A stretch of DNA of 52,786 nt, taken from Girardia tigrina (lineage: Eukaryota). Of the stretch, positions 19,293 to 48,074 are shown one piece after another; the stretch's first letter is position 1, and each line of letters begins with the position of its first letter. The notes under the pieces are model-generated. The model saw only the letters and a program-made list of their open reading frames with translations. It was not told the DNA's origin and searched no databases. Location of the stretch: the NCBI GenBank assembly GCA_001938485.1, contig MQRK01215037.1, positions 28,754-81,539 on the forward strand, given 5' to 3'. A program made the position numbers and the translations under genes.

Positions 19293-19310
19293 TGGTGTCA
19301 GAAGTGGGAT
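19293..19310 (+). promoter_or_regulatory. Primer-binding site (tRNA-Leu type)
   Basis: TGGTGTCAGAAGTGGGAT is complementary to the tRNA-Leu 3' end ATCCCACTTCTGACACCA. Confidence 0.9.
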
Positions 19311-19354
19311 CTTCCCACCACAATCGCAGACCGATCTCAAATGATTCGTCGCCA

Positions 19355-21026
19355 ATGGGAGCTGTTAGCGAAGCTGAGCAAGTCAGACACGTAAATTTTT
19401 GTCTACCCACTTTCTTATCCACGTGTTTCTTTCATTTAATCGGTGGATGTGTCTTATCTCATACCACTTTCCTCTCTTCTCGTGTTATCTTCCATTTCAT
19501 TATCATTATGATTTTATATCTATATTTTGCTGTGCCACATAATGATTTTATTAAAACTTTTAAAATTATTTTTCGTAAATGTGTATTGAATCTCACAAAA
19601 AGACACAACATCTCAAGTGACACTTCACCACCACACAAAGACTACGCAGCTCTCGGAGAACACAACACGAACACAACCAATATACTCTACCCCGATCAGG
19701 AACAAGAGTCATGGGACATACGCATCACCGTCACGGGCGACACACATCTTTACGAGACAGTCAACATTAATGAAACAATTTCACTAACACTGGATCACAT
19801 CGCCCACACAACCGGCCATATGGTCACACTTTATCACGGGTTTAAGCCGCTCAGACCTCAGATAACGTGGTCAGATTATAACATTGTGAACGACACAACA
19901 CTACGAAGTCACGTCCCTCTGGCACGGGGAAAACCTACAAAAAGGATACCGCAACGACACCCCCCCCATAATAGCACACATGCCAAGGCGAACGCGAACG
20001 CAACTGAAACTACAGAACCTGTTGGGTCAGATTCATCGTCCGACACAAACGGATCGCAACCAATACAGATTGACAAACAAGAAACAAGCATGACGCAGAT
20101 TTCGAACCTCTCGTCACAGCCTCCGCCAGTGATGCCCACGACTAAAAGTTTCATCCCATACTTCGAGGACGAAACTGGATCAACACAACTCTGGTTAAAG
20201 GTCATGGATTCCAGACTAAGATCCATGCACATTAACAGGCAACTGGACCTCTTCCACGAGTTGTTGGTATCCTTTCCATCAGAGCAATTAACAACCATCC
20301 AGAAATACTTGCCGCAATTACTGGCACACGACACACCATACGAGGAGTTACAACGAGGTTAGTTCAACGAAATACTCCATCCTTCGAAGAGTGCTTTGAC
20401 GAATGCTTCCGACCCATGCCAATCGGCGACTCGAAACCCACTGAGTTTCTCAGAACTGTCACCAGGAAACTCAACAATGTGAATCCACTGCTCACCACAG
20501 GCGATAGAGGAAACGACAAGCTCAAGTAATTTCTAATGCGCGCACTACCTGCCACGCACCGTGCTGTTCTTTTAACGTCCCCACACCTTCCGGTACAAGA
20601 CCTTGCCGAGATTGCCGACCGCATTACCGATGCAGTTGGCCACAACTCCTGTCCCCCATATGCCCCGATACAGTCCATTCAAACATCAGCACAAGCTCAT
20701 CCCGCAGCAATCGTACACCAACCCCAACCGATCGACGACATTGCTACACTCACCGCGCGATAGCTTTCCTTGAGGCGAGAGACAATAGCTCCAAGGGTGC
20801 TTACCGACGACAACCACGGCCTCAATCAACCACTACGAGAACTCATGACACACAATGTTATTTCCACCGCAGATTCGAAGCGCTTGCTAAAAAATGCCAA
20901 CCGAAATGTTCATTTCCTTGTGCTCGCGATCAACTAACGGCTACGGACACATGCGTTTGGCACTCACAATTCGGGACGGCAGCGACCCGTTGTGCGCCTG
21001 GCTAGCATCTGAACAAAAAAAACTGA
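19355..21026 (+). pseudogene. gag: ORF1: hydrophobic leader, ubiquitin-like domain, linker, Gag (CsRn1-like)
   Basis: First in-frame ATG after the PBS is at 19355 and the frame stays open to 20362. The Gag core PYFEDETGSTQLWLKVMDSRL...PYEEL continues through frameshifts and stops to CYFHRRFEALAKKCQPKC and CVWHSQFGTAATRCAPG*, ending AAA AAC TGA. Confidence 0.85.
19712..19930 (+). other. Divergent ubiquitin-like domain in frame with Gag
   Basis: WDIRITVTGDTHLYETVNINETISLTLDHIAHTTGHMVTLYHGFKPLRPQITWSDYNIVNDTTLRSHVPLARG aligns to ubiquitin with one 3-aa gap and 19 identities: I3, V17, T22, I23, I30, G35, L43, K48, L50, T55, S57-I61 (SDYNI), T66, L67, L73, G76. Confidence 0.75.
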
Positions 21027-21077
21027 GACCGCCACTCATTCGTGCAGCCGATGAGACTCAACATGGCAATTGCTGCA
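21017..21077 (+). promoter_or_regulatory. -1 ribosomal frameshift signal (A AAA AAC plus stem-loop/pseudoknot) at the gag-pol junction
   Basis: Slippery heptamer 21017-21023 sits immediately before the gag TGA, and pol is in the -1 frame. Downstream pairings GCCA/TGGC and CTCAT/ATGAG; loop TGCAGC is complementary to a downstream GCTGCA. Confidence 0.8.
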
Positions 21078-24000
21078 GCGTCTTCACATCAGAGGCACAA
21101 ATCCACAACAATCAACGCACCTCAGCATTCTTTTTAGTTGACACTGGTTCGGCTGTTTCAATTTGGCCACAAAAATTCGTACTGCACCTCACAGAGACCG
21201 ACAGGAAGTTCACAGCAGCCAATGGTACAGCAGTCCGTACTTACGGCACCATCTCCTTAACCTTCTCACTGACGCAGGTGCAGCGATCTTTCCAGTGGGA
21301 GTTCACAGTAGCAGATGTAATCCAGCCTATTCTGGGGGCCGACTTACTGGAACATTTCGAATTCTTAGCAGATTGCAGGATGTACCGACTCATTCTCAAT
21401 CAGGCCACAGCAACGGACTAAGTCAACACAGCGCCGGCGGACACCATCACCACACCAAACAAACGACAAGGGACAGTTCCCAACACACAGTCTCATACGT
21501 TCTCGATCCATGAGCAACACATTCGTGACAAGTTCCCAACGCTGCTTCAAGCACCAAGCAACGACAGCACAACTTGCGTTTCGACCCACGTCATAGCAAC
21601 GACCGACTACCCACCAGTCCATCAGCGAAGACAGGAATTGTTACAAGCGATTCGTGCCCTGGCAGCTGAAGAGTTCAAATAGCTTGAAGAGGCCGGAATA
21701 ATCCGATGTTCCTCTTCCCCATGGGCAGTACACCTGCAAATCTTCAAGAAGAAGGACGGAACCTTGCGAATATGTGGTGACTACAGAGGACTCAACAAGG
21801 TGACCATTATAGACTCGTACCCAATGCCGCTCATTACCGACCGTCTTCAGCGCTTCGTAGGATGCATCGTCTTCTCATCTCTTGATTTGAGCAAAGCGTA
21901 CCATCAGATCCCCATGGACACAAACTCAATTCAGAAGACGGCAGTCACAACACCGTTCGGCCTATACGAATATGTGCGCATGCCCTTTGGGCTACGAAAC
22001 GCTTCACAAACGTTCCAGCGGCACATTGATACGGTACTCAGTGGACTCCCGAATGTAGCCGCGTACGTCGACGACATCATCATCGCGTCGCCGAATCACG
22101 AGCAACACAAAACACATATTACCGCGACACTTGCAAGATTGAGCAAACACAACCTACAGGTAAAACTGCCGAAATGCCACTTTTTTCGACAACAAGTTGA
22201 ATTCCTGGGTCACGTATTATCCGACAAAGGCGTACTACCACTGGAGAGCCGTGTCAAAGCTATCAGAGATTTTCTCCGACCAGTAACAGTCAAGGCACTG
22301 AGAAGCTTCTTGGGGATGATCAATTTCTTTAGACGGTTCATACCGCACATTTCCGACATACTGGCACGCCTTACAGTCCTTTTTTCCGGACCAAAAAGTT
22401 CAGAAATCACCTTGACAACCGAGTCAGAACAGGCGTCTTTTCGAGCCAAAGACGCCTTACAAAAAATCAAATCCCTGCATTTCCCGGACAACAACTTACC
22501 ACTAACATTGACAACGGACGCCTCCAACACGGCGATTGGCGCAGTCTTGATGCAGGTCCGCAACACGCATTCCGAAACCATAGAATTAATTTCTCACAAA
22601 CTGTCACCGGCTCAGACAAGATATTCCGCCTTCAATCGGGAACTGTTAGGCCTTTACATGTCGGTCAAACATTTCGAACATTTCTTGATCGTCAAATCGA
22701 CAGTCGTTTACACGGACCACAAACAGCATCTGCATTATCTGACCATGAAATATTCTTCCCCGCGGCAACAACATCACATGAGTTATCTGTCACAATTTAA
22801 CATCGAATTACACTATATCAGAAGAGCTGAAAACGTTGTCGCAGACTGTTTGTCCAGCGCAGACATATCCAGTCTTGATTTCGAATCCCTCATTACCACT
22901 GAGACCCTAGCACAACACCCACCAACCCAAAAAGATCTCAGCTTTTTCTCCAATCCACCGGTCTCCAAATGGAACATATTCTTTGACACTTAGCTTGCTG
23001 GATCCATCCGACCGATACTTGGACAAGAGCTACACGCACAAGCTTTCCAAGCCGTTCACAACGTCGCTCACCCCGGCAGGAAAGCAACGTACGAGTTGTT
23101 ACGAACTAAAGTCATTTGCCACAGATGCGAAAAGACGTCACACTATGGTGTCGGGCTTGCTTCGACTGTCAACGGGGCCAGGTCACCCGGCACACGAAAC
23201 CACCGACTATAGCCTTTCCTACTGGCAGCAGGTTCGACACAATTCATATGGACCTGGTCGACCCACTTCCTCGGTCAAAAGGATTTTCTTACTTGTTCAC
23301 AATAATTGACAGAAACACACGCTAGACTGAAGCATTCCCTCTCTGAACAACCGCCAGCGAGACCATAGCAGACATATTGGTGAACCACTGGATATCCAGA
23401 TTTGACATTCCCAAATGGATCATTACCGACCATGGTCTGCAATTCGAATCCGCACTTCTTACGGATTTAACCAAAAGACTGGGTATCCAAAAGGTGAGGA
23501 CAACTGCTTACCACCCCCAAACCAACGGTCTCGTGGAACGCTTCTACAGGGCACTAAAAAACTCGTTCAGAGCGCTAGGCCAAACAACAGCCTGGGCAGA
23601 CCAATTACCTTTCGTCCTTCTTGCTTGGCGTAACATCCCCGACGGCAAACACGGGACTTCGCCAGCACAACTGCTTTTCGGGTCAAACACTTCCTTCGTA
23701 AACGAACTGTTTTTCAACGAAGCCCCCGGGAACAACAGCCAACTGGCGGCAGCTCAGACGCTCTTCATGGAAACCGACAGAACGCCCAAACATCATGACA
23801 CACAAAAGATTTTCGTTCCAAAAGACCTGGCAACTGCAAAATTCGTCTGACTGCAGAAAGAAACCACCACGTCTTTAGAATGTCGTTACACTGGGCCACA
23901 CAGACTCATCTCCATCGACTCAAGCAACAACACAACAAGAATCACCCTCCACGGTGCAGAACGCACCGTCAACGTATGCAAACTTAAACTCTGCATACAC

Positions 24001-24216
24001 TTGCAGGATTACACACCCGGTAACAACGATACAGCACCGAACAACAACAGTCTGCCAGACACCGGTGATCACACATGCACATTCCCCACAACATCCACAG
24101 ACGTTACACCAAGCCAACGGAATCAATCCATACCAACACAGCCAACGAAGACCACACTACCCCGATCTAGACGTCGTCCAGCACGCTACAGAGAACAAAC
24201 CCAAACACTTACATAG
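21023..24216 (+). pseudogene. pol: pol: protease, reverse transcriptase, RNase H, integrase
   Basis: FLVDTGS protease; LDLSKAYHQ, MPFGL and YVDD RT; TTDAS and ENVVADCLS RNase H; H..HPG/CFDC zinc finger and HMDLV, ITDHG, NGLVERF integrase. Broken into several ORFs. Confidence 0.95.
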
Positions 24217-24384
24217 CACACATAACACTGAAAAATCATCATCTGTACTATACCACATCTGTTGTATTTTTTTTGTTTTTTGTGGTTTTCCGCTCTCCCG
24301 CCGATCGGCAGTTACACTCAGCGACAACTCTCATAACTCTGTGACCTCCACGCCAGTGCTCCATACTTCCTGTGGGGGGGCTGA

Positions 24385-24598
24385 TGTGGTGTTCAAAAAA
24401 CTCATTATAAAGAAAAATTCAACAAATTAAATGAATAAACAAAAATTAATGTTTTTGTTTTACTAAACAAAGTGGCAAACAAATTCAAAAAAATGAGAAA
24501 TATGGAATCCACCACGACCAAAAGCAAAAGCATAGCTAGCAACTTCAGCAAACACTCAGTCGTCAAATCAAATATCCCCAAACAATACACGAGTTTTC
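24385..24598 (+). repeat. 3' LTR (truncated)
   Basis: Follows a G-rich PPT. Matches the 5' LTR up to GAGTTTTC, then abuts an unrelated gag. Confidence 0.9.
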
Positions 24599-24619
24599 GA
24601 AATTTCTTTGTTGGTTTCG

Positions 24620-25204
24620 TTATTTATAGTGTCGTTTACGTTTGCCTACCATTTTCCAATCATCATGTTTACCTACCGTATTGTATGCCGCAATTGTTTC
24701 TTCTTTTTCCATTTTGCGTAGTTCATACATATTTGAAACTACATCTTTTATGTCCTTTGTTTCGGTAGCTCCTCTCAATTTCAATTCTCTTTTCACTGCA
24801 TAATCGTCAACCATATTCATGTAAACAAGGCTGAGCAGCTTTTTCTTATAAAGTTTGCCTTCTGTTAATATCGTTACTAATTCTTCGACTTTTTTGAACG
24901 TTTCTTCTGGATCTGAAGATCCCCACCGGAGATTTAAAATATCCTTCATTTTGTCAAGCAGAGATTTTTCTTTCACAAATGCCGTTTTCAGTTTTTCTTT
25001 ATACGTATTTCCATCTGCGTCTGAAAATTTTGTGATTGCTGATGGAATCATGAAGATCGTCACCATCACTAATCTTCTATCTTCTGTTATACCCATATCA
25101 GCAAAAAGTTCGAAATTTTTTATGAAGTAATCTAATTTCGACTCGGATCCATCAAAATTTTCGTGTCCCATAATGTTTGTTGTCACATGAGCTGTGGTCG
25201 CCAT
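24620..25204 (-). mobile_element. gag: gag fragment of a separate Gypsy-type element
   Basis: 194-aa ORF with ENFDGSESKLDYFIKNFE and KRELKLR, similar to the gag at 41502. PBS-like TGGCGACCAC overlaps the ATG. pol is absent. Confidence 0.7.
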
Positions 25205-25599
25205 ATTAACAACATCAATATGAGTTATATTAATATTTATTTATTAATATCACAAGCGCATTCAATATTTGACATTTTTCTTGATCGAAATATTTCTGAG
25301 TTCATACTAATTATTTTCAATAAATGAAAATCTATTAATAAAAATTATTTATTATAAAGAATCTAATTGGTTAAAATTAAATCTAAACATTTTTTTTAAA
25401 AAAGAACATATTAAATTAATATTAAAATTTTAAATTACATTAAAAAATAAATAATACATTCAAAAACTATTTTAAATCTTTTTACTTTAAAATTAAATTA
25501 AATTATCTTTAATTAGTAGGAATTAAAGAAAATACCAATCATACATCTGTGTAGGAGAGAGACATTCCGAATCAACATAAAACATGCACAATATCAACA

Positions 25600-26330
25600 C
25601 ATAATTCAAAACATTCACTCTATCGATATTTTGTATAATATTAACTTTACTACAGAATTGGAAGTAAATAATACTTTTCTATTTTCGGATGTCCCTGTTA
25701 AATGAATGAATGGTTAATATGAAACAGATTGGTACAGAAAGGTAACAGACACAGGACTTTATACAACATCAAAAAGTTACTGTGATTAGAGTTGCAAAGA
25801 TAGTATGATCAAGGGTTTAATTCTTAGAATATGGAATTTTTCCATAACCTTTGCGAAAGCATGTGAAGAAACTAGACATTCTTAGAAAACGTTTGAGTAA
25901 TAGTATGTGTCCGAATAACAAATAGAAAAAATATTAAATTAATGGTAGATAGAATCTACTCTGACAAACCTAAGAAGGAGTACGAAAAAGAGCGGGTTAA
26001 AATTACAAAAATTCCATATTCATAAGGTTTCAGAAAATTTTAAAATAACATTTACAAAAATATCAATAATGTTAAAATAGTATCCGTAACATCCAAGTTA
26101 GAAATTATGTTACCATGAAGTCTAAAACTGACAATTTAGTGAAAGCTGATCTTGTGTACAAATATAACTATTACGGATGTGAAAACTCATACATTGGAGA
26201 TACAAATCGTCATCTCAAAACACGGATTAGTGAACACTCACAGTCAAGTCGATCGAGTAAGGTTTTTGATGATTTCTTATGTTGCAAATATAGAACATCA
26301 TCTATTTCAAAAGATGATTTTTTTTAAGCA
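25600..26330 (+). mobile_element. Penelope-like element 3' fragment (RT thumb plus GIY-YIG endonuclease)
   Basis: INFTTELE, YETDWYRKVTDTGLY and LVYKYNYYGCENSYIGDTNRHLKTRISEH. Confidence 0.85.
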
Positions 26331-26435
26331 CTTTTCATATACCTTCACTGTATTTCATCTTGTCAAGAATGGGCCATTTACTTTTGCCTATATCTCAGCA
26401 TTTAGACCACATAGAAACTTCAAATTTTCACTGAA

Positions 26436-27414
26436 NNNNNNNNNNNNNNNNNNNNNNNNNNNNNNNNNNNNNNNNNNNNNNNNNNNNNNNNNNNNNNNNN
26501 NNNNNNNNNNNNNNNNNNNNNNNNNNNNNNNNNNNNNNNNNNNNNNNNNNNNNNNNNNNNNNNNNNNNNNNNNNNNNNNNNNNNNNNNNNNNNNNNNNNN
26601 NNNNNNNNNNNNNNNNNNNNNNNNNNNNNNNNNNNNNNNNNNNNNNNNNNNNNNNNNNNNNNNNNNNNNNNNNNNNNNNNNNNNNNNNNNNNNNNNNNNN
26701 NNNNNNNNNNNNNNNNNNNNNNNNNNNNNNNNNNNNNNNNNNNNNNNNNNNNNNNNNNNNNNNNNNNNNNNNNNNNNNNNNNNNNNNNNNNNNNNNNNNN
26801 NNNNNNNNNNNNNNNNNNNNNNNNNNNNNNNNNNNNNNNNNNNNNNNNNNNNNNNNNNNNNNNNNNNNNNNNNNNNNNNNNNNNNNNNNNNNNNNNNNNN
26901 NNNNNNNNNNNNNNNNNNNNNNNNNNNNNNNNNNNNNNNNNNNNNNNNNNNNNNNNNNNNNNNNNNNNNNNNNNNNNNNNNNNNNNNNNNNNNNNNNNNN
27001 NNNNNNNNNNNNNNNNNNNNNNNNNNNNNNNNNNNNNNNNNNNNNNNNNNNNNNNNNNNNNNNNNNNNNNNNNNNNNNNNNNNNNNNNNNNNNNNNNNNN
27101 NNNNNNNNNNNNNNNNNNNNNNNNNNNNNNNNNNNNNNNNNNNNNNNNNNNNNNNNNNNNNNNNNNNNNNNNNNNNNNNNNNNNNNNNNNNNNNNNNNNN
27201 NNNNNNNNNNNNNNNNNNNNNNNNNNNNNNNNNNNNNNNNNNNNNNNNNNNNNNNNNNNNNNNNNNNNNNNNNNNNNNNNNNNNNNNNNNNNNNNNNNNN
27301 NNNNNNNNNNNNNNNNNNNNNNNNNNNNNNNNNNNNNNNNNNNNNNNNNNNNNNNNNNNNNNNNNNNNNNNNNNNNNNNNNNNNNNNNNNNNNNNNNNNN
27401 NNNNNNNNNNNNNN
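26436..27414. other. Assembly gap (N run); smaller gaps at 243-275 and 16438-16484
   Basis: Seen directly. Confidence 1.
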
Positions 27415-27672
27415 AATTGAAAACTGAGGGTACACTAAAATTGTCTTTTCTGACCCAGAAAAGTTATTTTGTCCTTTTGAGTGCATTATGAAAAGTGCTT
27501 AGTATTTTTTTTAAAATTCTGTTATTTATAATTCAGAATAATTATGATTCACATTATGAGAGCTTGTACTGTGAATCATTGCTAATAAGACATTATAACC
27601 CATTTATCAATATCCAAAATGGAAAACGTAACAGAGCCTCAATATTAAATATCTTTAAATAAATTAATGTTA

Positions 27673-27677
<5 letters not shown>

Positions 27678-27720
<43 letters not shown>
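27678..27720. repeat. (TA)n microsatellite
   Basis: Seen directly. Confidence 0.95.
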
Positions 27721-27723
<3 letters not shown>

Positions 27724-29306: not shown

Positions 29307-29356
29307 TTAATTTTTATCATGTTTCACCACATCAGAATAAGACGGGGGAGCAACTT
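29307..29356 (-). CDS. Shisa-like/STMC6 gene, copy A, last exon (PPxY motif and stop)
   Basis: After a 49-nt GT-AG intron (29357-29405) it reads (E)VAPPSYSDVVKHDKN*. PPSY is a WW-domain (NEDD4-family) ligand motif. Confidence 0.85.
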
Positions 29357-29405
29357 CTAGAATTAATTTAATAAAAAATAGGAAAAAATATGAAATATAT
29401 CTTAC

Positions 29406-29660
29406 CAGAAGGTATTAATGGATATTGTGGACCTATTCCGTCGTAAGATGTTGGATTATAAAATTGTGAAGGATGTTCTGGCTGTGGCATCGAAGGATTT
29501 GTAGTAGGGTATGGTAAATTTACAACTTCAGGTGCTCCAGGCATTGGATTAAGAGGATATTGTTCAGTAGGCATCGGTTGCATAGGATATGGAGGAAACG
29601 CATTGATCGATGGATTTGGAGGATATGGAGAGAAATTAGGAGCAACCATAGGATATTCAA
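29406..29660 (-). CDS. Shisa-like/STMC6 gene, copy A, Pro/Tyr-rich cytoplasmic exon
   Basis: After a 46-nt GT-AG intron (29661-29706); 255 nt, phase 1-1: (V)EYPMVAPNFSPYPPNPSINAFPPYPMQP...PQYPLIPS. Confidence 0.9.
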
Positions 29661-32529: not shown

Positions 32530-35500
32530 TGTAAGTTTAAACAAATTGAGATGAAACAAAAAAAAAAAATCACGCTTTTAACAAAAATTTATTGTTACAA
32601 CAAAACCCTGAATATTCAAACAAATATTTCATTAATAATTATATCCCCACCTGAACCCTAGTTCACATAATAGTTTAACCAATCAGGTCTCTTCCGAGTT
32701 CTACTGGATAGTCGTATGCAAATGTCCTGATTAACTTGATCGTCACATTCTTCCTCGTAACTACTACTACTGCTGCTATATCCATCTTGTATTTTGTTTT
32801 TTCCGTCAACCGCCATATCCGGCAGTCCGATGTTCTCTACTTGTCTCTTTCGTATGTCCTGAACGTGTCTCGGTACTTCATCAACACACTTATCACTAAC
32901 TACCTTTGTAACGACCCCCGGTGCCACTGTCTCGGTTCATCGTGTATGTTGATGAGGTTTAATAAACACCTTATCACCGATTTTCCATTCATTTTTGGTA
33001 ATCTGATGTTATACCTGTATATAGACTCTGCTAGAACTTCACCTTGTCTTCACCTTTTCCACGAGGTACTACATTGTAGTAAAATACTGCTTTCCATATA
33101 GGAATATCAGACCTCTTCGAAATTCGTTTAATTGTGCGATGGCATCTCTCCACAATACCATTTGTTGATGGCCTAAATGCACATCTATAAATAATATTTA
33201 CTTCCCATGAGTTACACAACATTTTGAATTCTGATGACCTAACCGCAGTTCCATTATCCACCCAGATTTCTCATGGACGTCCTCTTTCTGAAAATACAAT
33301 TTGACATTATGCAATCACATCTTGAGCCGATTCAGAATTCACGCGTTTCCATACAGAAAATCTACTTGGTCCACAGTCTATCATTGACAAGTACGTAATA
33401 CCATTGTAATGTGTATGGTCTAACGCTAAACGTTCCCAATTACTTTGAATTCTTAACGAATCATGAGTTACTCTCTTCGGTGACGGATCGATACTGTTGC
33501 ATTTATTACACTCTTTTATCACCCTTTTAACTTCATCAACGTCTGCTGCTATCCCATATCTCTAGAGTAAATAAATGGTCTTTTCTACGCCCATATGGTA
33601 CAAATTATGATGCTCTCTGATGTCAGATATTGCAGATTTACACTCATTTACAGTCATTGCTACATTTGGCTTTTCCATATCCAGCCAACTTCGTTTGACT
33701 CGAGTCATCCGATCTGCAATATTCTGCTCGGAATTTATCCACACACATTTACATCGAAGATCAAATTCTCCAAGTATATCTTCAATCATTTTTAAACGAC
33801 GCTTATAATATTATATACATATATATTTCATTTATTCCACTTACTTTTATTCTTTATTCCGATCAACAACGGAGTTTAACCAACCACACACTACTTGAGA
33901 ATCTGTCATTATGTCAAACTCTTTCACGTCCCATTTCAAGATCATATTTAAACCTTTGATCACCGACTCTATTTCAGCTACATTTGTATGACTCGAATCA
34001 TTTTATTTTCTAATCCAACTACTGTCTTCTAACGTATTCCCATTACACTCAACAACACATCCAGTTGCTATCTTACTTGCATCGCACCACACTTTCCATT
34101 TAGTTGACGTTGGTGTATTCCATACGCCCTTCACAGGATCATCTTTATTTACTCTTTCTAATAAATCATTCATCAAAACTTCTGTTATACGTGACAACGG
34201 TTGATTCCAATCGATTCAGTTACACATTCGTTTTAAATAGCTACACGATACCCTCAACCATCCGCATACAGGATAGTGTCCAGTTAATTTACCAATGATA
34301 GAATAAATTCGTTCCTTTGTCATTACTTGATCCTCCACTATATTAATATTATTCGTTCTTTTCCATATCAATACGTTTTGCTTCAAATACATCTGAAGCC
34401 CAAGAACTGTTGTTGTACTATTTTTTTCTGGTTCTTTACATATCAGTCCATAATTTTCTAAATGATTTCTCACTTCCGAAACCGAAATTATATTTTCATC
34501 TAAAATCAAGTCGTCCACATAATGAGATACCCCTTTTTTAAATACATTCTGAGTTTCTAAAATAAAGTCTAGTATTCTATTCATGATTTTCGGAGCTGAA
34601 GCCAATCCAAAAACCCAATCGAGTTAATTGATATGGACAATCATTAATAAACACTCGCTGATATTCCCACAGATCTCTTTCAACTTGTATCTGTAAGTAC
34701 GCATTTTTTTCTCCACTTGCGGAGTGATTCACTAACTGCTATTGTATTTATTAGGTTCGTGATTAAAATTGGAAGTCATAATTTTGTAAACTTTATTTCT
34801 ACTACAATTTTCATTATTGAAACAAATTTATGAGGAACAATATTTTAATTACATAATCCAGATCTCAAAATTCTAAATAATATCGATAAATATATAAATG
34901 TTATTTTATTCAATTTTGTTTAAATTTAGATGTTTAAAAATATTTTAAAAATTCAATTCCTAAATATCTTTCTTTGATTTTAAATCATTCGATTATAAAT
35001 TATTTCTTTTTAATAAAAACCTTTTATTTGTTTATTTATAAAAATTGCAAAAATAATTTACAAATTTAAAATACAATTCACAAATTTAAAGTATAAAAAT
35101 ATTATTTTTATTTTTGAAATACAATGCACAAATTTAAAATACAAAAATATTTAGAAATATTTAAATTTATTATTATTTAATAGAGATTCATTAATTATAA
35201 AATTTTTCATATACATATATCTATATTTTATCAATTATTTATCGAATTTAATTTGCAGAATTTCCAACTGCCTTTTAACTTTAAATTATCTTTTTTTATT
35301 ACAGCTGACAACAAAAATTTCAAAAAAATTCTTCCGAATAACTCTTAAAATAAATGCAAAACAAATAAAATTCAATTATTTATGAAATTAACTTTTTAAA
35401 ATTAATTAAGATATTTTTTTACTAATAACTGTTTAAAAACTTTTGATTTTAAATATTTAAAATTATTTATAACAATTAATTATTTCCAAAAATTTAAAGT

Positions 35501-37634: not shown

Positions 37635-39312
37635 TTGTAAATCCCTAGTATAAGCTGCAGCTAATACGTACATAAAGGAAACATTTTTGAATCGCAGTTA
37701 ATATGATTTGCAGCTTATACAACTAAAAAACAATTCAAATTGAAGATAAGATTATTTATCTATTTAAATTTTCAACATCACCACTCCTCAAAACCATCAC
37801 ACTTTTCATTGTCAATAAAAGTGAAATTTTGTAGTAATTCTACAAGGTCATGAAAAACTGCAATGTTTGGATCAGATTCATTCAAATTCACTTCATTTTC
37901 TTCAATTTCAAGAACATCGTCGTTTTCACCAAATGAAACACGAAAACCATTCAAAATAGTGAAAAGGTTAACCTCATCCCAAGAGGAGACAATCCATTTG
38001 AAAATGGTATTACTTTCAGCTACTTTCATATTTCCGGACTTAGTATGTTTGATGTTCTCATAATCTTTAATGATCCAATCTCCAAATTCTTGCGCAATTT
38101 TGACTTGAACGAACGGTTAACAGTAAGATCTAATGGCTGCACCTTTGATATCAATCCGGTAGGTATGAAAGCTACTTTGGATTCCTTCTTAATTTTATCA
38201 AGTGCAGTAGCGATAAGATGTGAGCGATGCATATCAAATAAAAGCAATGATGGTACTTTTGGATCCTGGTTCTATGGTGTCTTTGGAGGCGATGTAATTC
38301 GACTCTTCCATACTTTCTTGAGCCATAACTCAAGAGTTTCATGATTCATCCAACCAGATCCATTAGCTGCAATAACAAGCTTTGATTCATGAATGCAAGT
38401 CTTTTGAAGTTTCTTTGTGCTCAAAATAACAAAGGCGGAAGTTTACTACTATTTTTGAGAACACGTAGATTGATGGTTAAACGTTTTCTTCATATTTGGT
38501 AGTTTTAATTCGTACCTCATGGGCAGCTTTAGCCTCAACTGTGGAGCTTAAAGGCATGTCACATTGAAAGGACACTTCATCAAAATTACCGATTTGATTA
38601 TCGGGCAAATCCTTCTATAAATCTGAGATGATGCTTCTAAACTTTGTCACCTGAAATTCCCAATCTTTCGGCAATTGTTGCTTCGTGGTAGGCCGTCGAA
38701 AACAAATATTCTTGCGTTTCATTAAATTATCAGTCCATTGAGAGCTCGCGAAAAATCCTTCAATCTTCATTTCTTTGACAATTGCTTGTGCCTGTAAACG
38801 ATTTCGAACAACCGACACTTGAAGTTCTCGTTCACGTTGAATTAGGATCCATTCGTGTAATTTCGTTTCCAATTCCGGATATCTAGCGTTACCATCACGC
38901 AAAGATCTTCGATTTGGATTCATTGCTTTGATAACAGACTCTCGGGCGATCCATCGTCGAATAACAGTTTCATTAATATCATATCGTCTTGCAGCTTCCC
39001 GTATGCTTCCTAACTGACGAGCTAATTCAATAATCTCTCTTTCTTTGCTAAACTAAAATATCTTCGTTGTTTCTTTTGTTTTTGTTCAGAATCGTTATCC
39101 ATTTTAATCATGGATTCAAAACAGTGCAATAAAAAATGTAAACAATATAAAAAATTAAAACAAAATGGTTTTTGTCACTGTGACATTTGTTTTTTAATGA
39201 TAGGTTGCTGATTTTAAAATCATGTATCATCAACGCAAATGGTACAGCTTATACGACTAAAAATACACTTTCATAAAAACATTCTCTGCAGCTTATGCTC
39301 GGGATTTTACAG
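37635..39312 (-). mobile_element. pogo (POGK-like) transposon with both TIRs, decayed transposase
   Basis: TA|TTGTAAATCCCTAGTATAAGCTGCAG ... CTGCAGCTTATGCTCGGGATTTTACAG|TA. ATG at 39102; CENP-B HTH (YPELETKLHEWI), GNFDE, LLFDMHRSH and VQPLDLTVNRSFK. Confidence 0.92.
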
Positions 39313-41501
39313 TAATTATTTAATAATTTAATTGCAATCAAGACATCACATTTGTTAATAATTCATGGAGATTGTCGAGAATGCAAAATTGTCTTTCGAA
39401 AAACTTTAAACATTAAAAATTACTTGATAGTATTTTTGATTACAACAAAATCTTGCAATTTTTAATTGCCATAGAGACAAATCTCTGTTTGTACAATTTT
39501 CTGTTTTCATATCATATCAATTTCCAGATAACGAGAAATAGAAAATCAAACTATATGTCAGTTATCTTTAATTAATTTTCTAATAGTACTTTCTGATTGA
39601 ATAAATATTTAATCTGAAACCATCAGTGGATTGAATACACAGCACCAAATTGGTTCAATTGTTTATATTAGAAAATGATTTGAGAGGATGTTTAATTTGT
39701 ACTGAAATTTAGTTATTATTTATTGACCATTGATAAAAAAAATTATTGCTACCACACTTTGTAAAGATTACATGTGTACAGCTCATTTTAGCAAATGTTT
39801 TTGTTAATATATATTTTCCATATTAATTTCTAAAATCAATAAACCTAAATTATATTTATGCAAAATGAAATAATACAATTTAATTCCTATCATCTGAGTT
39901 GTTGAATAAATTTATTCATTCTATTTGTATTTTTCATCTGGATTTTGTCACTAAATAAAAAATAAATTTGTGATAAAAATTTAAATAGTGATAATAAATT
40001 GTTTTGAAAACATAAAAAGCGCGCACCATAATTTTTATTGTTAATTTCGATGGAGTAATCGTCATCATTAGATTAAAGTTACAATGATAAATTCGCATTT
40101 ATATATGCAAAGTTTAAGTAATTTCTAAATCATAAAACTATTTTCAATAAAGTTGCAAAAGATGGTGTTCGTACATGGATTCGAGGATCAAAGGATTTGA
40201 TCATCAATTCTTCATACATCACCTTCAGGTAGTTATTAAATTGTGAACACAAAATCTTGAAATAACTAAAATCAACTTTAATATTTAAACAATATTTTCT
40301 ATGTTTATCAATGTTACAATAATTTACATTCGATTAGGTTCCTAAATGCGTTTACATAGTAAGTGACACATCTATTCGCCACACGGATTACATTTATAAC
40401 TGTCGTCACACCCATTACATTTATAATGATAAACTAAATTAGAACTTAAACTCATTGAAATGATAAAGGAAAAAATCATATCTCATGTGATCTAGACACA
40501 ATTTTAAAATTTAATAAATTAATTTCGTCGTATTTCATAATTATTCGTTCCACCCGGAGGGATGGATTGCAGCTGCACAAACCGATGACGACCATCAATC
40601 ATTCTCACAATGTCGTTTATGAGAAATACAGTCTGGATTATCTCAACAAAACATGTGAGGATCTTTCAATAACAGAATATAATTCCTTTATCCTACGTTT
40701 TATCTGGAAAAGTAATTCAAAGCTCTCGACAAATAGCTAACCAAGAAGATAAGTGAAATGGGATCCGAATTTCAAGAATTAGTTGAAGAGAAAGAAATTT
40801 ATTGAAAAAGGTCAAATATATCGAAGAGTAAACAACCATATTTTCAAATGAACTAAATCAAGCCTTCTACGAATTCGTTAAGTAATTTAACTTTATTGTC
40901 AAAAAAACTCAGAAGAATTGTGACAATTTCGAATAGCATGAGACATACGGTACTTTGAGAATCAGTCGGAACGGACATTTAAAGCCAATAACGACATCGA
41001 AAAAGTCATCATGTATTCTCCTTCAACGAAATTTTCGAAAAGATTATTAAAAATTTATATGAATTTAAAAATAATACTCGTGTAATTCAAAATAGAGAAT
41101 TATTTTTTAGTTTTGAAAAATATAAAATATTGATTAAAAAAAGAAACGAAAAAGACTAAAAAAACTATATAAAAAATAAAACTATATAGTAAAGAAAACA
41201 TTAAAGAAAACTATATAGCTTAAAAAATGTTATATAGTAAAAAAAAGGTCACGATGACCTATAAAAAATAAAAAAATAAGAAAACGTTGTGATAATTGTG
41301 AGATATTACAAAATTAAATTAAAATTTATTAAATAAAATTTTACGCAATCAATAAATTTAGAAAATTTCTAAATTTGTATTACACAAGTATTACGGGTTC
41401 GAGAACAGAGTTAACCTTTGACTCTCCTTTTATATTTGGTATATAAACAATGCATGCGTATATTTATGTTAGATTATTATATATATTTTAGAGTAGAATC
41501 T

Positions 41502-42456
41502 ATGTCTTCTAGCATATCGACCGAAGCGAATTTCATCAATCACATGATTCCGGAAGCGTTCAGTGGACAACAAGACATCAACGAATTTATTACGGACTGT
41601 AATAGATTCTTCGAAATTTCCCAAATTAAAGGAGACGTCCAGAATGTATTTGTCAAATGAATGTTGCCCAATGATTTAATTTCAATTTACGAAGCTGTGG
41701 ATCCGAAGATCACCAAATTCGATGAACTGTTAAAAGCGGCTTTTCAGAAACCCTTTTCATTAATTCAGGATTTCGTGAAATGAGAAAGGAAGTGATCCAG
41801 CCGCACTGTTTTTTTCAGAAAATCGATACAATGGGAGATAAACTGTTATCCCACAAATGGAATAAAGAGGAATTAACGACCTATTTCGTGATCCATTGTG
41901 TGAAAAATGTTGAAACAAAGAAAGAACTAAAATGCGCGATACGACGAAAATTGAAGACATCAAAAGTATTGTCTAGAAAATGGAATATGTTCTATTATTT
42001 ATTATTTTTTTAATAGAAGACAACGAAGTAGCAGTAATCAATCATAAAGAAACGTTTACTCAGATGATGAAAAAGAAAAGAAATTGTCAAAATTTACCGT
42101 CAAATAACTTTTCGAGAAACACTTCAAATAAGAGAAAATATTATGCCAATTCAAGGATGTGGAATCAGAAAGAAGAAATCAAATGCTTCAACTGCAAAAA
42201 AGAAGGGCATTCCTACAGAAACTGCAACCGAATTCGGAAAATCCAATGCTATTCATACAAAGAAGGAGGTCATATAAGAAGGAACTGCCCATACATATGC
42301 TGTTGTTCACCGTGCAAGAAGCAAGGACATTTCAATTATCAGAGTTTTGAGAAACAACAAGGTCAAAGTGGTAATTTTAGATATAACAATTTCAGACAAA
42401 GAAGAAACGAGAATGTGGCTATAATCAATTCAAAGATGAGACTCTTAGACCGTTGA
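41502..42456 (+). mobile_element. gag: gag pseudogene with three CCHC-type zinc knuckles (Gypsy-type); pol missing
   Basis: IPEAFSGQQDINEFI..., CFNCKKEGHSYRNC, CYSYKEGGHIRRNC and CSPCKKQGH. Related to 24620..25204. Confidence 0.85.
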
Positions 42457-42946
42457 GAATGCGATTATGAAATTGATGATGATTACTCAAAACATCGGGC
42501 TCAGTCTTCAGGAGAGGTCTAAGGAACTTGTTTGAGAAACAACTTTTTTCTAGTATATTTACCAATTAGTTTTTTAAACCATGCGACTATAAAGTTTAAC
42601 CAATTTACTATTAACAGTCAAACCAATAAAAATGAATTAAACACATACTACAGTACCATTGTTACATACATTACAATTTAAGACCTCAACTTATATTATT
42701 CTAAGAAAATATGCCATACATTACAATATATCAAAAGAAAATATTTCTCTAACCATTGAATATATAGAAAATAATTTATAAGTACTATAATAAATTGTAA
42801 ATATGTTAATCAAGAGGCATATAGGACTAATAAGCAATAAAAACAAAGTTACAATAACATTTGTTTCGAATATTTGATCTAACACACAAAAACCAGGAAA
42901 TAAAATAAATATGAAGAATATGGCGGTTGCAATCAGGATATTAGTC

Positions 42947-43446
42947 AACGGATACGAAATGAAATGCGAAGCTTAAAGAATTGAAATCTGCAATTCAGAG
43001 TACCGTGTAGCAAAAGTATTGAAGAGAAAACCGATCGAGACAAGTATTTTATCAACAGTCTATTAGAGTAATGAGTCCTGGACAACGCCTGAGAAATACC
43101 TTGCACGGTTACAAGCTTTTTAAAATTTCTGCATGAAAGCGGCTCTCAAGAAGACCAAACTCGACAGAATCCAGAATAAGGATATGGCTATTGAACTGAC
43201 TGGGGCAATATTGATTCTGGTAAAAAGGTACAGAGTATTATATTAATAAAATTCACGGAGGGTGTGTCTGAGGTTCGAAGAGTTCTTAAGTCTGAAATCA
43301 CCTTAGAAAATCACAGAATCAACGGACGTAAAAAGATACTGATGAGAGAGCGCATTGCTCGCGATGTGCTCTGGGTATTCAACGATCCGGAAGATTTGGC
43401 AGAATACAGGGGAAATCTAAAAAAGAGAGCTTCTCGACAACAATGA
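42947..43446 (+). mobile_element. 3' fragment of an RTE-like non-LTR retrotransposon
   Basis: TSILSTVY*SNESWTTPEKYLARLQAF*NFCMKAALKKTKLDRIQN matches the post-RT YGxExW...L..FE..C...L region of RTE/L2-type ORF2. Confidence 0.65.
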
Positions 43447-43449
43447 GAA

Positions 43450-44066
43450 ATTTAAACACTTGAGCAAAGGAACCCTATCTGAGAGATTGAAAGAGGTAAT
43501 CAAGCATGAGGAAGAATATGTAAAAATGTTTGAGCCGCGTATCAAACGAGTAGCTTGCATATTACCTTCTTGCTTTAAATAATTTGCTGAGCAAAAGGAA
43601 CTCACAAGGCAAATTAAAAATGTGCATCTGGCTACGGCGCCGATGACATACAGAGGTGATGGTTCATTCATGTCTCATGGAGAACTACCACAAAAGTTAC
43701 AAAATTTATGGACAGTTAATTTATCATCGAATAAAAGGTAATGATACTTCGAACATTCAATTAGTACAAAGAGCAGAAACAAAATGACGAACTGGACCTT
43801 CGAACTTGAACGCGCAACATGATATGTCAGTGTCTGTCGATGTAACTAATGAGGACTGTTCAGGTGTAGTTCCTAGTATGGTACTGACTTTTCGGTTGGA
43901 AAGGAGAGTGTTTCATTGCTCATTTCTCCGTTGCACTAAGTGCGTTTATACAGCCAAAAGTCTTCAGAATCACGGAACGAAGGAACATGACTGGTCATTT
44001 CTCAGGGGGAAGCCGAAGCATGCTCGTTCACAGAAAGCTCACACACTCACATCCGAAGCCGTTTGA
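43450..44066 (+). pseudogene. Degenerate fragment with two C2H2-type zinc fingers
   Basis: CILPSCFK*FAEQKELTRQIKNVH and CSFLRCTKCVYTAKSLQNHGTKEH. Possibly the N-terminus of an R2/NeSL-type retroelement. Confidence 0.45.
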
Positions 44067-44476
44067 GAGAATCAAAAAACTTTGTATATTTCAAATGGTT
44101 TCTACCTGATATAAAGTATATGATTCGCTACCCTGTGCGCCAATACGGAGTGTTAATTGTAATACAGTTATCCGTAACAGTCGGGGATGCTTATTATCCT
44201 TCAGCTATAATATGAAGTATAAATTATATTTAAAAAATAAATACCAAGTTTATTTTCTATATATTATAATTAATGCATTTTTAAATGCATGTGATATGAA
44301 CGATAAAAAACTGAAATATGAAACTAAATAATTTTAAAAATAATTTTGTTGATGGTTGATATGCACATCGTAGATATTATTTAATAAAATAACAAGATCT
44401 TAAATTATGGGTCTTCATTAATTACTATAACAAGTGAACTGGTTTCTTTAACATAAATAAAAACAGCATAAAGAAC

Positions 44477-44621
44477 CTGTCAAAATATTTACAACAGTAC
44501 TCTTTAGTTTCCTCTCCACAACAGAACCGACTGGACATATCGTCCCATGGACATACGAACCATGGAGTCGCAGTAACATTGCGGTCGTAGAGATCATATT
44601 CGTTATAGCAAATTGAAATAT
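44477..44621 (-). CDS. Shisa-like/STMC6 gene, copy A, 6-Cys domain exon
   Basis: (D)ISICYNEYDLYDRNVTATPWFVCPWDDMSSRFCCGEETKEYCCKYFD(R), 145 nt, phases 1/2. The N-glycosylation sequon NVT is conserved as NIT in copy B. Confidence 0.9.
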
Positions 44622-44883
44622 CTGTTTATTTAACACGTTAGAACATTTTAAACAATAACAAGAGTAACCAAAATTATATCTTAAAAATAAATATGATATT
44701 TATACATTCTCTCAAAATAATATTATATTCGTACAAATATTCAAATAATATATTAAAAAAATAAAATATTTACATAATTTGACATATTTAAATGGTGAAT
44801 ATATACATATATATATTTTCTAAAATTAGGAATGGAATTTTAGGTAATAATTCAAATAAAGACCATTTTTGATTATTAAATTT

Positions 44884-44930
44884 ATTACCTAAACAAACGT
44901 GTTTCACCATTACGGCATCGTCAGGGTAAT
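44884..44930 (-). ncRNA. Degenerate type I hammerhead ribozyme-like motif
   Basis: Minus strand ATTACC-CTGACGA-T-GCC GTAAT GGT-GAAA-CACGTTTGTTTA-GGTAAT: 6-bp stem I and intact core, but imperfect stem III. Confidence 0.55.
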
Positions 44931-45707
44931 GAAAAAGTGATTAATTACAATTTATATAGTGGAAAAAAATATTAAATCATATGTATCAAAAACATGTTTT
45001 TAAAATATGTTATTTAATAAACGTTAATATGATTCTATGAATCACTTTGTATGTTTAAGCATGATTTCTAATACTTTCTTAACAAAGCTACACAAATATC
45101 CTTTCCTAATTTGTGTCAAAATGAATTTAAATCCCTTAGAAATCTTTATTGTGATCTAAATGATTACTCTTACATTTTTAAATATGGCTTGTTTTGCGAT
45201 GTTTTGACTTTTCTTATAAAAAAGTCGAATTGTTGAAAAGTTCGAAAACGGTGATTTTTCCAAACGCAATTTCAAATTCTCAATCAAGCTGCATTACAAC
45301 AAATAAGCGTTAAATCGATCTTTTTAATTCGGTAGTCTATTTTGTAATATTATTTTCAATCGGTTTCATTATTTGGATATGAATCTGTCGTTTTGATTAG
45401 TGATGGCGAAATTGTAATTCGTAAATTTGTCAGAATTTTTTGTGTTCAAATTGATTTAAAATATTTTATTCATATAATTGAACTATTTTTTATGTTTTAT
45501 ATAAAATTTCAAAAATTTGTTTTAATTCAAAAACATTAGAAATTGTATGAATTGGTTTAATCGAATTTAATCGAATTGTTATAAAAATTTGTTTTTTGTT
45601 TTGTCGAATAAATGAATAAACCTTTTGAACGTGCGAAATTTGTTCTTGATTGAAATTCACCAATTTTTTATAATCAATTTTTTATTTGAAACAATTTAAT
45701 TGACGAA

Positions 45708-46343
45708 ATGGTTGAAAAAGTAATCAAAGGTAGTTCGACGGTTATGGTGTGTGAAATGAAAAAGTTAATAAACAATCAATTGATGAGTGATGTGCAATTT
45801 GAAATCGGTCCCGAGCGGAAATTGTTTTACGGTCACAAATGCATTTTAACTGCGCGCTGTGAAATATTCAAATCGATGTTCGTCGATCAAATGAATCGCA
45901 AAGACTCCCCAAGTCCGTTAGTGTTACAAGAAATGAAGCCGAATATTTGCAAATATTTACTCGAATATCTCTACACAAATCATATTAAATTAGAAAAATC
46001 TTCCGTTAATGAAACAATTGAATTACTCGCGATTACGATTGAACTAGAACTCGACAATGGGAAAATCGTCGAGAATTATTGTTCGTATTTCTACGAAAAT
46101 CATCCGATCAATGAAAATTGTCGATTGGCTCGCGAATCGCGACCGAGAATCGATCGAAGGAAATCGGTGACTGACAGAAGAGATTGGAAGTGTCAGTTGT
46201 GTTTTAGTCGATCGATGGTGAGAGAAGGAAATAATGATCGCTACTGTTGCCAATATCACACCGAGTTGCCGGATGATGTGATCGATCGTTCTCATGGGCC
46301 ATTTGAGGGCCCGATAAGTGTGTGGCGATCTTGTGTTTCTTGA
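45708..46343 (+). pseudogene. BTB/POZ-domain ORF (BTBD19-like N-terminus) fused to an unrelated Cys-rich segment; lies antisense in an intron of copy A
   Basis: LINNQLMSDVQFEIGPERKLFYGHKCILTARCEIFKSMF...LLEYLYTN is a clear BTB domain resembling BTBD19. No recognisable BACK domain follows; the frame continues past one stop (PNRASVFTCQPCCKK). Confidence 0.8.
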
Positions 46344-46839
46344 CCGAATCGAGCGTCGGTGTTTACGTGTCAGCCGTGCTGTAAGAAAACGTTTCTTTCC
46401 GATGTCGGCGCTTATTATCAGAGTCAGGTTATTTACAAGCTGGAATCAGAAAAATAAACAAATGTTACTACAGAATTCGACCCAGTTCATGGTGAAATAT
46501 ATGGGTCTTCCAAAGTCGATGGCAGTAAATGCTATCAATGGGTTCCAAATCCTATTGGAGTTTCAACGGTGGCTTTAATTACCGAAGAATTGGTTATCGA
46601 TAAAAACGAACTGCTAATTCTATATCTGCGGCGAAAATAGAGTGAAAAGGAAAAATTCTCAAACCGACTATCGAAATCGAAGGCAACTATAAGATAATGA
46701 TGAAAACCATTCCCAAAAAGGCGCTCCAACGTCCCCAAAGCCGGCAATAAATTACTTTTTATCCCCCGACCCAAATACTGTCACTCAGAACCAGAGTGCC
46801 ACAGCCACGATATCGCTGCGCTCTCTCTCGCACCATTTC

Positions 46840-46857
46840 TGGTAGCAGAGCGTGGTT
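46840..46857 (+). promoter_or_regulatory. Primer-binding site (initiator tRNA-Met type)
   Basis: TGGTAGCAGAGCGTGGTT is complementary to a metazoan tRNAi-Met-like 3' end (…CTCTGCTACCA), 4 nt after a CA dinucleotide. Confidence 0.85.
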
Positions 46858-47137
46858 GCGGCGCTCTGGGGTTGGTGGGTGGTTGTTGGCATCGGGGTTT
46901 GATATTAAAATTCGAAGCGTCCTCCACCTGATGGAGAAGGCTTATGATATGTTTGTGTGTTCACAGTGGATGAAAGAATCGAATGAAATAAAATTAATGC
47001 CCCTGTGGTTGTTGAATAAATTCGCGGATTGTTTGTGTCAGCATTGCGGGATGATTGTGAGAATTTCGAGGATTGGGTCGTCCCGAATACAATACCGGCC
47101 AAGCACCAGGGTGCGACTTAATCTTCCAGCTTGTTGG

Positions 47138-47340
47138 TATGAAATGTGTGTGGATGTTCTAGTTCTCTAGTTCTGGTTTATGAGCCAAGTGAGACCATAA
47201 AGAGTTTGAAGGAGGAAATACATTATGAACATCAAAGGTTAATATTTGCAGGGAAACAGTTACGAAACGAACGAAAGTTAAAGGATTATAATATCCAAAA
47301 AGAATCGACGCTCCATTTGGTTTTAAGTTTGAGAGGCGGG
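47138..47340 (+). other. Ubiquitin domain ending LRGG, read through into the Gag region
   Basis: [53 protein letters not shown]: 30/36 identity to ubiquitin residues 41-76, a ~6-aa deletion after I30 and a frameshift near 47160-47170. No stop after GG. Confidence 0.95.
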
Positions 47341-48074
47341 TGCGATCTGGACGTTGTAGAGAAAGAGAGTTTGGATGATCAGTGGGACGATGGAAAGCGA
47401 AAGAAGATCCTTGATGAGAAGAAGTTCGAGAATGAAGATCCGAAACAACATTGGGATTCAGGAATGAAAAAAGACAATGAGTTGAAAGAGAATGTTGATT
47501 CGGATCAGAAATCTAGCGTTAGAAGAACTTCGAATCAAGTCCGAGACCAGAATGAGTTACATGCAATATGAGAGAGAGTTTGATAGATTAATAATAGAGC
47601 TAATATTGGTAGGGAAAGAATTGACACAAAGCGAATAAGTTTGCAAGTTAATAATTGAGAAGGAAGAAATTAAGATGAAGCATAAAAAATGTGAGGAATT
47701 ACATGAGAATGAAATTAAGCAGCAATTTCCAGATTCGTTCTCAAGTAGATACATTTACCTCAAACTACTAGAGGTACCTAAGTTTAGCGGCCAGTGGAAA
47801 GATTATGGATATTGGCGCGCGTCCGTCAAAGTCTGTCTAGAAGACAACAAAATGTTGGAGGCGGATAAATATATATTGTTACGACGAAGTTTATTCGGAG
47901 AGGTATTGTCTTTGATCGCAGATGTTGGAATTCATGAAGGAACGTTCAAGACAGCTCTCGAACTTTTGGAAAAGGCCTATGATAGAGACAAGCGGAGCGT
48001 CTCAAGCGATGAAAAGCGTCGGGCTGAATTTCAAACTTCTCCAAAGTTAGAAAGTTGTAAAGAATCTTCAAACT

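Follow-up and report, generated by a model that had tools for sequence, protein, structure and literature searches.

The window considered here, a stretch of 52,786 nucleotides from Girardia tigrina (assembly GCA_001938485.1, contig MQRK01215037.1, forward strand), contains two long terminal repeat (LTR) retrotransposons, a BEL/Pao element and a CsRn1-like Gypsy element. In both, a domain of the ubiquitin (Ub) type lies on the sense strand between the primer-binding site (PBS) and Gag, with no stop directly after its C terminus, as had been stated in a first reading made from the letters alone (the sequence-only reading). Each element belongs to a multi-copy family and is itself a decayed copy, and only natural copies are described. 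In the host assembly, which comprises 1.43 Gb in 255,254 contigs, Ub directly before Gag marks a whole BEL/Pao lineage. This architecture, its lineage-wide spread, the retention of the terminal diglycine (GG) of Ub, the purifying selection, and the swaps of Ub modules are established here. The feature that was first noticed is real, and its scale as a lineage-wide trait with repeated Ub replacement had gone unnoticed.

The BEL/Pao copy of the window is damaged. Relative to two other copies (L063 and L064), ~124 nt are lost near 47165, a stop lies just upstream of the Ub remnant, and the frame of the latter differs from those of the leader and of the DUF1759 core. The assignment of the remnant to ubiquitin with an LRGG end at 47340 stood (Table 1). 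Because this Ub is out of frame, an in-frame leader–Ub–Gag is seen only in other BEL copies, for example, L061, L112, L117, and L125; the Ub–Gag fusion proposed earlier thus holds for these copies and not for that of the window. In L061, leader, Ub, DUF1759, and Peptidase_A17 occupy a single frame when stops are read through. The DUF1759 match (PF03564) has an E of 1e-10 in L061 and 9e-11 in L112, as opposed to 8e-4, below the cut-off, in the window. Peptidase_A17 (PF05380) is matched with an E of 5e-40 in L061, occurs in 12/13 proteins of the Gag search, and is absent from the truncated window copy, which is without pol and whose likeness to other copies ends at 48087. A pair of LTRs is seen in L120 as a 373-nt repeat of 94.6% identity, ~8 kb apart; the window keeps the 5' LTR only. 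The PBS is presumably initiator-tRNA-Met-like; no tRNA was called by ARAGORN at the one examined of the 14 places with the complementary pattern. The window copy is cut by a 196-nt inverted repeat (48075-48270/48440-48635), beyond which, to 50200, decayed frames appear Penelope-like by eye and have no Pfam match. Lys/Glu-rich coiled-coil or low-complexity frames without pol follow Ub–Gag in L064, in L103-L119, and in the window (47341-48087). Such pol-less derivatives are probably non-autonomous, and in the Gag tree the window copy groups with one of their lineages.

The spread of the arrangement was determined from two samples. A PF00240 scan of the genome gave 3445 candidates, of which 150 were listed and 20 of these picked for long open frames; 19/20 consist of Ub and the N terminus of a BEL Gag, and one is a polyubiquitin. 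The second sample is independent of Ub and comprises 70 of 150 listed PF03564 loci, namely the top 30 and 40 with room upstream, including four identical loci (L143-146). Herein, the Gag core was called in 68/70, and the C-terminal half of Ub was sought within 900 nt upstream. A Ub profile match was found upstream of Gag in 44 of the 70 loci and ends in GG in 39/44; of the five others, two have a frameshift at this point, and in three the final pair is RG, DG, or GV. The residue following GG, at the usual start of Gag, is Met in 29, Ser in 9, and Thr in 1 of the 39 loci, and never Pro. Among the 24 core-called loci without a match, four contain frameshifted or gapped Ub DNA, one has Ub further upstream, two carry a very diverged ubiquitin-like domain (Ubl) ending in RGG, and one keeps the tail only (L239). 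The remaining 16 are affected by contig ends, runs of N, or 5' truncation, with the PBS out of reach. Hence, Ub or its tail is present in 52/70 loci, the other 18 being truncated, gapped, or without a Gag core call, and all no-match loci with the PBS in reach do carry Ub DNA, a Ubl, or a tail. The most diverged BEL Ub family (L222/L232) is missed by PF00240. In the tail-only locus, a single copy, the PBS is intact, and about twelve C-terminal Ub residues, GG included, precede Gag.

In one family, B, 30 of 41 matches were chosen through Gag DNA alone; the Ub tail is present in 30/30 and GG in 27. A profile scan of PF23055 Gypsy loci gave a Ub match in 0/30, and the PBS lies 43-83 nt ahead of the Gag match in 18/23 of such loci inspected. 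Therefore, Ub is lineage-wide in the sampled BEL elements and family-specific in Gypsy. In several DUF7041 Gypsy families (L151-L180), the frame appears to start inside the LTR. A Pfam scan of element frames detected no deubiquitinase domain. A single-copy retrogene insertion is ruled out by 41 and 64 DNA matches and 154 protein matches. None of the three outcomes that the sequence-only reading had named as speaking against it was found in BEL: copies carry Ub, often in frame with Gag, and under purifying selection.

Conservation of Ub was examined in 19 family representatives (18 BEL and 1 Gypsy), in which 18-73 of 76 residues, that is, 24% to 96%, equal host Ub. GG is kept in 16/19 representatives against 8.6 expected and, in the 13 with less than 70% identity, in 11 against 3.9, the expectation being a mean-identity null that is blind to shared descent and the profile favoring intact C termini. 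By position, L73 is kept in 16, position 74 in 9, G75 in 18, and G76 in 17. The resulting LxGG, with a free position 74 between L73 and GG, is taken here to be a deubiquitinase-type site. Upstream tandem Ub remnants, which may stem from few events, end in GS, GN, or GV and never in GG and hence are an internal control for the retention of the Gag-proximal GG. Further residues are well kept (K48 in 17, R72 in 16, R42 in 15, and I44 in 14 of 19), others less so (K63 in 12, L8 in 11, and V70 in 10). In family B, the ratio of nonsynonymous to synonymous differences per site (pN/pS) is 0.24 (0.17-0.33) for Ub, 0.37 for Gag, 0.61 for an Hsp90 piece, and 1.01 for the far leader. Judged by these ratios, the BEL Ub is under purifying selection. 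Small residues or Met predominate after GG, and Pro is absent, which fits N-degron and cleavage rules; Pro after GG is disfavored. Families with Ser at this place have no Met at the Gag start position, and public Ub-less BEL Gags have their start Met at about the position of the Ub–Gag junction.

Several points weigh against cleavage by host enzymes at this site. Besides the two biases of the GG expectation, high retention is seen at other Ub glycines too (G10 in 16/19, G35 in 15, G47 in 14, and G53 in 13); thus, GG retention is partly a general constraint of the fold. R74, which matters for Ub recognition by many enzymes, is lost in 10/19 representatives. The low pN/pS of Ub could in part reflect conversion from the conserved host Ub, and where a family has Met after GG, Gag might be initiated at that residue. 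All copies examined are decayed.

The Ub module does not always share the history of its Gag. In the Gag tree, near-host Ubs (91-96%) stand beside Ubs of 65-66% on short branches (L117/L240 and L147/L149). In a gap-free Gag comparison, L147 and L149 differ by a synonymous difference (pS) of 0.17 in Gag and 0.63 in Ub; L149 and L240 have a common Ub (pS 0.09) and more distant Gags. Read in this way, the sequences indicate that Ub modules are swapped between sister BEL lineages. The fresh near-host Ubs are accompanied by tandem Ub remnants, so that polyubiquitin mRNA fits as their source. Their nearest host-type Ub is a GC-rich polyubiquitin, though at a pS of 0.27-0.58; host polyubiquitin mRNA or other elements may have been the donor. 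This polyubiquitin, a GC3-rich three-unit frame of 242 aa (L074, G000:C179109), is present on four contigs, and its locus has no BEL primer site.

Other host pieces are found in the leaders and LTRs: Hsp90, leucine-rich repeat, PRMT, phosphatase, RING, Vac14, and BTB. In the LTR regions of sister families, PRMT, metallophosphatase, RING, and Vac14 pieces occur, with a Pfam match in 7/15 upstream frames scanned. In family B, a piece of the Hsp90 middle domain lies directly before Ub (L112 ORF residues 42-144), collinear with a divergent public protein (P0144) at 43% over 242 residues. In family C, an Hsp90 remnant seems, by eye, to be joined to the Ub tail, and family F (L219) has a leucine-rich-repeat fragment between the PBS and a 36%-identical Ubl. 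CCCH zinc fingers (PF00642) are contained in the Gag of some families (L112 and the public protein P0137).

To look beyond this genome, 1.84 billion representative proteins were searched with a profile built from the part after GG of nine Gags, which gave 150 proteins; together with 13 from an earlier homologue search, these were scanned for Ub. Ub stands directly before Gag in 6/163, with GG in five; in addition, P0137 shows by eye a Ub-like tail at its start, and one further weak Ub match is spurious. The Ub–Gag proteins, from JGI, ENA, and MetaClust records, rank near the top of the Gag search, which is favored by the choice of profile. PF00240 is found in none of the 13 distant BEL polyproteins from the homologue search. 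In a 48-row Gag tree, 30 Ub-less Gags form a clade (support 100) apart from 16 Ub rows; of the two Ub-less rows outside it, one is N-terminally truncated and one is a long branch. A single origin of the BEL Ub–Gag is allowed by this tree. The BEL elements were placed by trees of Gag and not of reverse transcriptase (RT). When Ub was included in the protein search, polyubiquitins dominate among the 120 of 866 matches listed, and the ESM Atlas gave no usable match for the Ub–Gag piece. Family B DNA is present in sequencing runs coded as organisms A-E and in a leaf-litter metatranscriptome, with no run containing half of the query words. In the four runs examined, X2 contigs bridge leader/Ub and Ub/Gag, and one X7 contig covers leader–Ub–Gag with a differing Ub middle; these demonstrate presence only, not transcription. 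In the open literature, as far as its text was accessible and with subscription journals, Repbase, and Dfam outside the scope, no description of Ub before Gag in LTR elements was found; a report available in part regards it as rare for extra domains to become fixed in LTR elements and, in that part, has ubiquitin only in a reference (PMC9289625).

Table 1. Features of the two retrotransposons and of the rest of the window, in positions of the window.
Feature	Position	Strand	Remarks
BEL 5' LTR, ~1.65 kb	45190..46835	+	multi-copy; shared left edge; 44 matches
BTB-domain frame inside BEL LTR, 217 codons	45690-46343		PF00651, E 1e-14
BEL PBS	46840..46857	+	complementary pattern at 14 places
BEL leader	46858..47164	+	~124 nt lost from its end, Ub N terminus included
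BEL ubiquitin remnant ending in LRGG	47165..47340	+	PF00240, E 8e-15; 30/36 last residues equal host Ub
BEL Gag, N-terminal part	47341..48087	+	weak DUF1759; frameshifted; broken off at 48087; no pol
Gypsy 5' LTR (TG...CA)	18929..19289	+	214-nt direct repeat with 24385-24598, 97%
Gypsy PBS	19293..19310	+	complementary to host tRNA-Leu(CAG)
Gypsy leader, 66 codons from first shared in-frame ATG	19508..19705	+	ATG in 26/29 copies
Gypsy ubiquitin-like domain	19706..19930	+	diglycine end in most copies, absent in the window copy
Gypsy linker, 53 codons	19931..20089	+	C-run 19960-19967, length varies among copies
Gypsy Gag core	20090..21005	+	Met 20090 in 28/30 copies; DUF7041 match weak; in the window copy, the CHCC knuckle region is broken
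Gypsy pol, decayed	21110..23850	+	protease, RT, RNase H, integrase, in that order (Pfam)
Gypsy 3' LTR, partial	24385..24598	+	preceded by purine-rich tract
Transposase	11532-13053		PF13843
Long open frames, several frames	26143-27498	both	no Pfam match; probably low-complexity
DUF7047/RT fragment	34219-34623
Tc5-type HTH transposase fragment	38618-39052

The Gypsy element of the window extends over 18929-24598, and its family is large, with 154 matches in the 150 candidates, out of 1571, that were scored. The CsRn1 clade is defined by a CHCC knuckle, CX2HX9CX3C, and a tRNA-Trp PBS, according to the accessible part of the defining report (PMC2582038). The knuckle is complete in a sister copy (L014). 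The PBS is that of tRNA-Leu(CAG), its complement being found within two ARAGORN tRNA-Leu(cag) genes in one of five loci scanned (L252). As the PBS is tRNA-Leu and not tRNA-Trp, the element is named CsRn1-like and not a CsRn1 member. Copies were compared in a set of 30 loci with two near-duplicates, and pN/pS was calculated pairwise over 29 of them. An upstream ATG at 19355 is unique to the window copy (1/30), and a hydrophobic stretch (19484-19540, mean hydropathy 2.11) lies mostly 5' of the shared ATG. The ORF1 frame from the LTR interior through to the Ubl (18983-19507) has no stop common to most copies; it is probably non-coding since pN/pS is 0.83 in its last part. A query with Gypsy ORF1 gave no homologous protein among 2550 candidates.

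The Gypsy Ubl consists of 75 aa, and in a sister copy it matches host Ub at 19/76 residues (25%); it is a candidate for a Ub fold. The ESM Atlas groups it with ubiquitin/Rad60-SLD clusters (0.93), where the ten best family-bearing matches all belong to one family or clan, and 16/17 sequence matches in the PDB are ubiquitin, none being significant per domain. A Pfam scan of the domain gives no match. Profile–profile alignment with Ub (hhalign) runs end to end and puts the GG in exact register with the Ub C terminus, at an E of 3e-4 and a probability of only 39%. AlphaFold models from the single sequence and with 16 copies are unusable (pLDDT 46 and 48). The window copy does not end in GG; this end is found in 22/30 loci, with another pair in seven and a gap in one, and is mostly followed by Lys. 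To the BEL Ubs, the domain is 12-27% identical and to host Ub 26%; no DNA common to the Gypsy Ubl and the BEL loci was found, and on the Ub tree, in which 1/22 branches is supported, it has no firm place. Independent captures of the two domains are plausible, and the Gypsy domain may have come from the host or from a BEL element.

Whether the Gypsy domain is fused to Gag is weighed on mixed evidence. The alternative is that it lies in an upstream frame or spacer, with Gag translated from Met 20090 and a merely superficial likeness to BEL, which is a real possibility even if a doubtful one. The ATG at 20090 is present in 28/30 copies and lies at the usual Gag start of related families, and many other ATGs lie upstream of it, which is unfavorable to initiation there. 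The C-run of the linker shifts the frame in 17/29 copies and keeps it in 12/29; yet the in-frame state is the commonest single one, occurs in both subfamilies, and the shifts are scattered on a star-like tree. The identity to Ub of only 25% would suit a spacer, but the GG in exact Ub register would not. The pN/pS of the Ubl, 0.58 (confidence interval (CI) 0.40-0.83), equals that of Gag (0.62), compared with 0.75 (CI 0.50-1.15) in the leader, 0.91 in the linker, and 0.83 behind the PBS. Against a released Gag count that the interval of the Ubl overlaps the non-coding-like baseline of 0.83-0.91, that Lys-Pro and a linker of 53 codons come after GG, and that only 3/29 copies are open throughout 19508-20090. 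A selection test on shared versus singleton variants has too few for power (7 synonymous and 8 nonsynonymous in the Ubl). On balance, the Gypsy Ub–Gag fusion is probably real, and, with less certainty, the Ubl probably works as the BEL cassette would, cut by host enzymes.

For BEL, the following scheme would account for these observations. A BEL ancestor would have taken up a coding sequence of host ubiquitin, fused in frame precisely where Gag starts. ORF1 would be translated as leader–Ub–Gag(–Pol), and host deubiquitinases would cut after LxGG, freeing Gag with a defined small or Met N terminus regardless of the upstream sequence. Because such a cut would free Gag whatever lies upstream, selection would keep the Ub fold and the Gag-proximal GG, and the leader would drift and tolerate host scraps. 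Occasionally, template switching, either to host polyubiquitin mRNA or to other elements, would exchange the Ub module. The benefit may lie in better expression, yield, or folding, in insulation from the leader, or in the N-terminal residue. Translation as a single precursor, cleavage by a host enzyme, and a benefit to the element are steps that we infer. That the BEL Ub is a cassette cut by host deubiquitinases to make the N terminus of Gag, with a convergent, far more diverged version in the CsRn1-like Gypsy family, is considered likely; as an earlier proposal of a host-cleaved cassette, it is well supported for BEL by GG, frame, and selection and stands less surely for Gypsy. The wider claim, in which a deep LTR lineage in several hosts would have handed its capsid N terminus to host deubiquitinases, with a cassette renewed from host mRNA and serving as a bay for host pieces, and with Gypsy as a convergent case, has about an even chance of being right.

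It is rather unlikely that the cassette was locked in without benefit, that is, tolerated as the one host insert at the N terminus of Gag because it is cut off, indispensable once the old start was lost, and refreshed by chance from the plentiful Ub mRNA of the host. The scraps of other abundant mRNAs in the leaders and LTRs would be expected of such a process, capture through LTR-mediated template switching is established as a general route (PMC5131818, as far as available), and the far leader of family B is neutral. Yet Met is kept at 29/39 GG junctions, which would make Ub dispensable, and no intact Ub-less member was found; moreover, the fold core and K48 are retained beyond the tail, and a tail-only copy was met once. 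The Ub variant as a payload, either a decoy or chain-altering factor against Ub-dependent host defense or a docking site for ESCRT or the proteasome, is improbable: the well-kept K48, R42, R72, and I44, the BTB and RING pieces of some LTRs, and the ubiquitin-pathway domains of Burro elements (PMC6431247, in part) would suit it, and late domains can be substituted by a Ub fusion to Gag, but in the constructs of that work, as far as its text was available, Ub was C-terminal with GG removed (PMC2958808), whereas an N-terminal Ub ending in GG should leave Gag, L8, V70, and K63 are poorly kept, and the replacement of diverged Ubs by near-host Ub in several lineages is unexpected for a tailored decoy. 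The ESCRT or Ub-binding role that had been suggested thus finds little support, the cut site being the conserved feature.

If the cleavage scheme is correct, a natural "ubiquitin fusion technique" would be fixed in a retroelement lineage, and deubiquitinases would be a new host dependency of retrotransposition. Sequence landing upstream of the cut would be harmless to Gag, which would give a reason why some elements collect host fragments. The BEL Ubs form a natural variant series (24-96%, LxGG kept, position 74 free) for probing deubiquitinase requirements.

Compared with known systems, the window Gypsy family shares with CsRn1-clade Ty3/Gypsy elements the CX2HX9CX3C knuckle, a weak DUF7041 Gag, and the order protease–RT–RNase H–integrase. 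It differs by its tRNA-Leu PBS in place of tRNA-Trp (PMC2582038, accessible part) and by a leader, a Ubl, and a linker, together ~800 nt, that separate the PBS from Gag and that other DUF7041 loci are without (30/30, by profile). The giant planarian Gypsy elements Burro/GYPSM1 likewise have captured host domains in ORF1, one of which is Ub/SUMO-like (PF11976); however, their Gag is N-terminal, the Ubl follows further downstream, flanked by MATH and BCL-2 domains, and the available part of the report describes no GG junction at the start of Gag (PMC6431247). With other BEL/Pao elements (Belpaoviridae), the Ub-GG lineage has in common the DUF1759 Gag, Peptidase_A17, the LTR pair, and the PBS. 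It differs in carrying Ub where those Gags have just a start Met (Ub in 0/13 homologues and 0/30 sister-clade rows), in the CCCH fingers of some families, and in several derivatives without pol.

The nearest functional parallel is found in cytopathic pestiviruses (BVDV Osloss, CP1, and CP Rit), which have likewise acquired host Ub, by RNA recombination and directly ahead of a viral protein (PMC8310069, PMC13517609; both in part). Often, two Ub units are inserted, or host scraps flank the Ub, and cellular hydrolases cut after it (PMC8310069, PMC13517609), which gives the N terminus of NS3 (PMC8310069). Each such insert arose sporadically and independently, is limited to a single isolate, and stands before NS3; the BEL cassette, as opposed to such one-off accidents, is fixed in a deep LTR lineage, stands before the capsid protein, ranges over 24-96% identity, and has been repeatedly replaced. 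In the host, polyubiquitin, Ub-RPL40, and Ub-RPS27a are fusions in which Ub-GG precedes, head to tail, a protein set free by cleavage, and a host Ub-RPL40 frame is present at L093. In these linear fusions, Ub is N-terminal and invariant, whereas the BEL Ub follows a variable leader, resides on a mobile element, and tolerates many substitutions, including that of R74.

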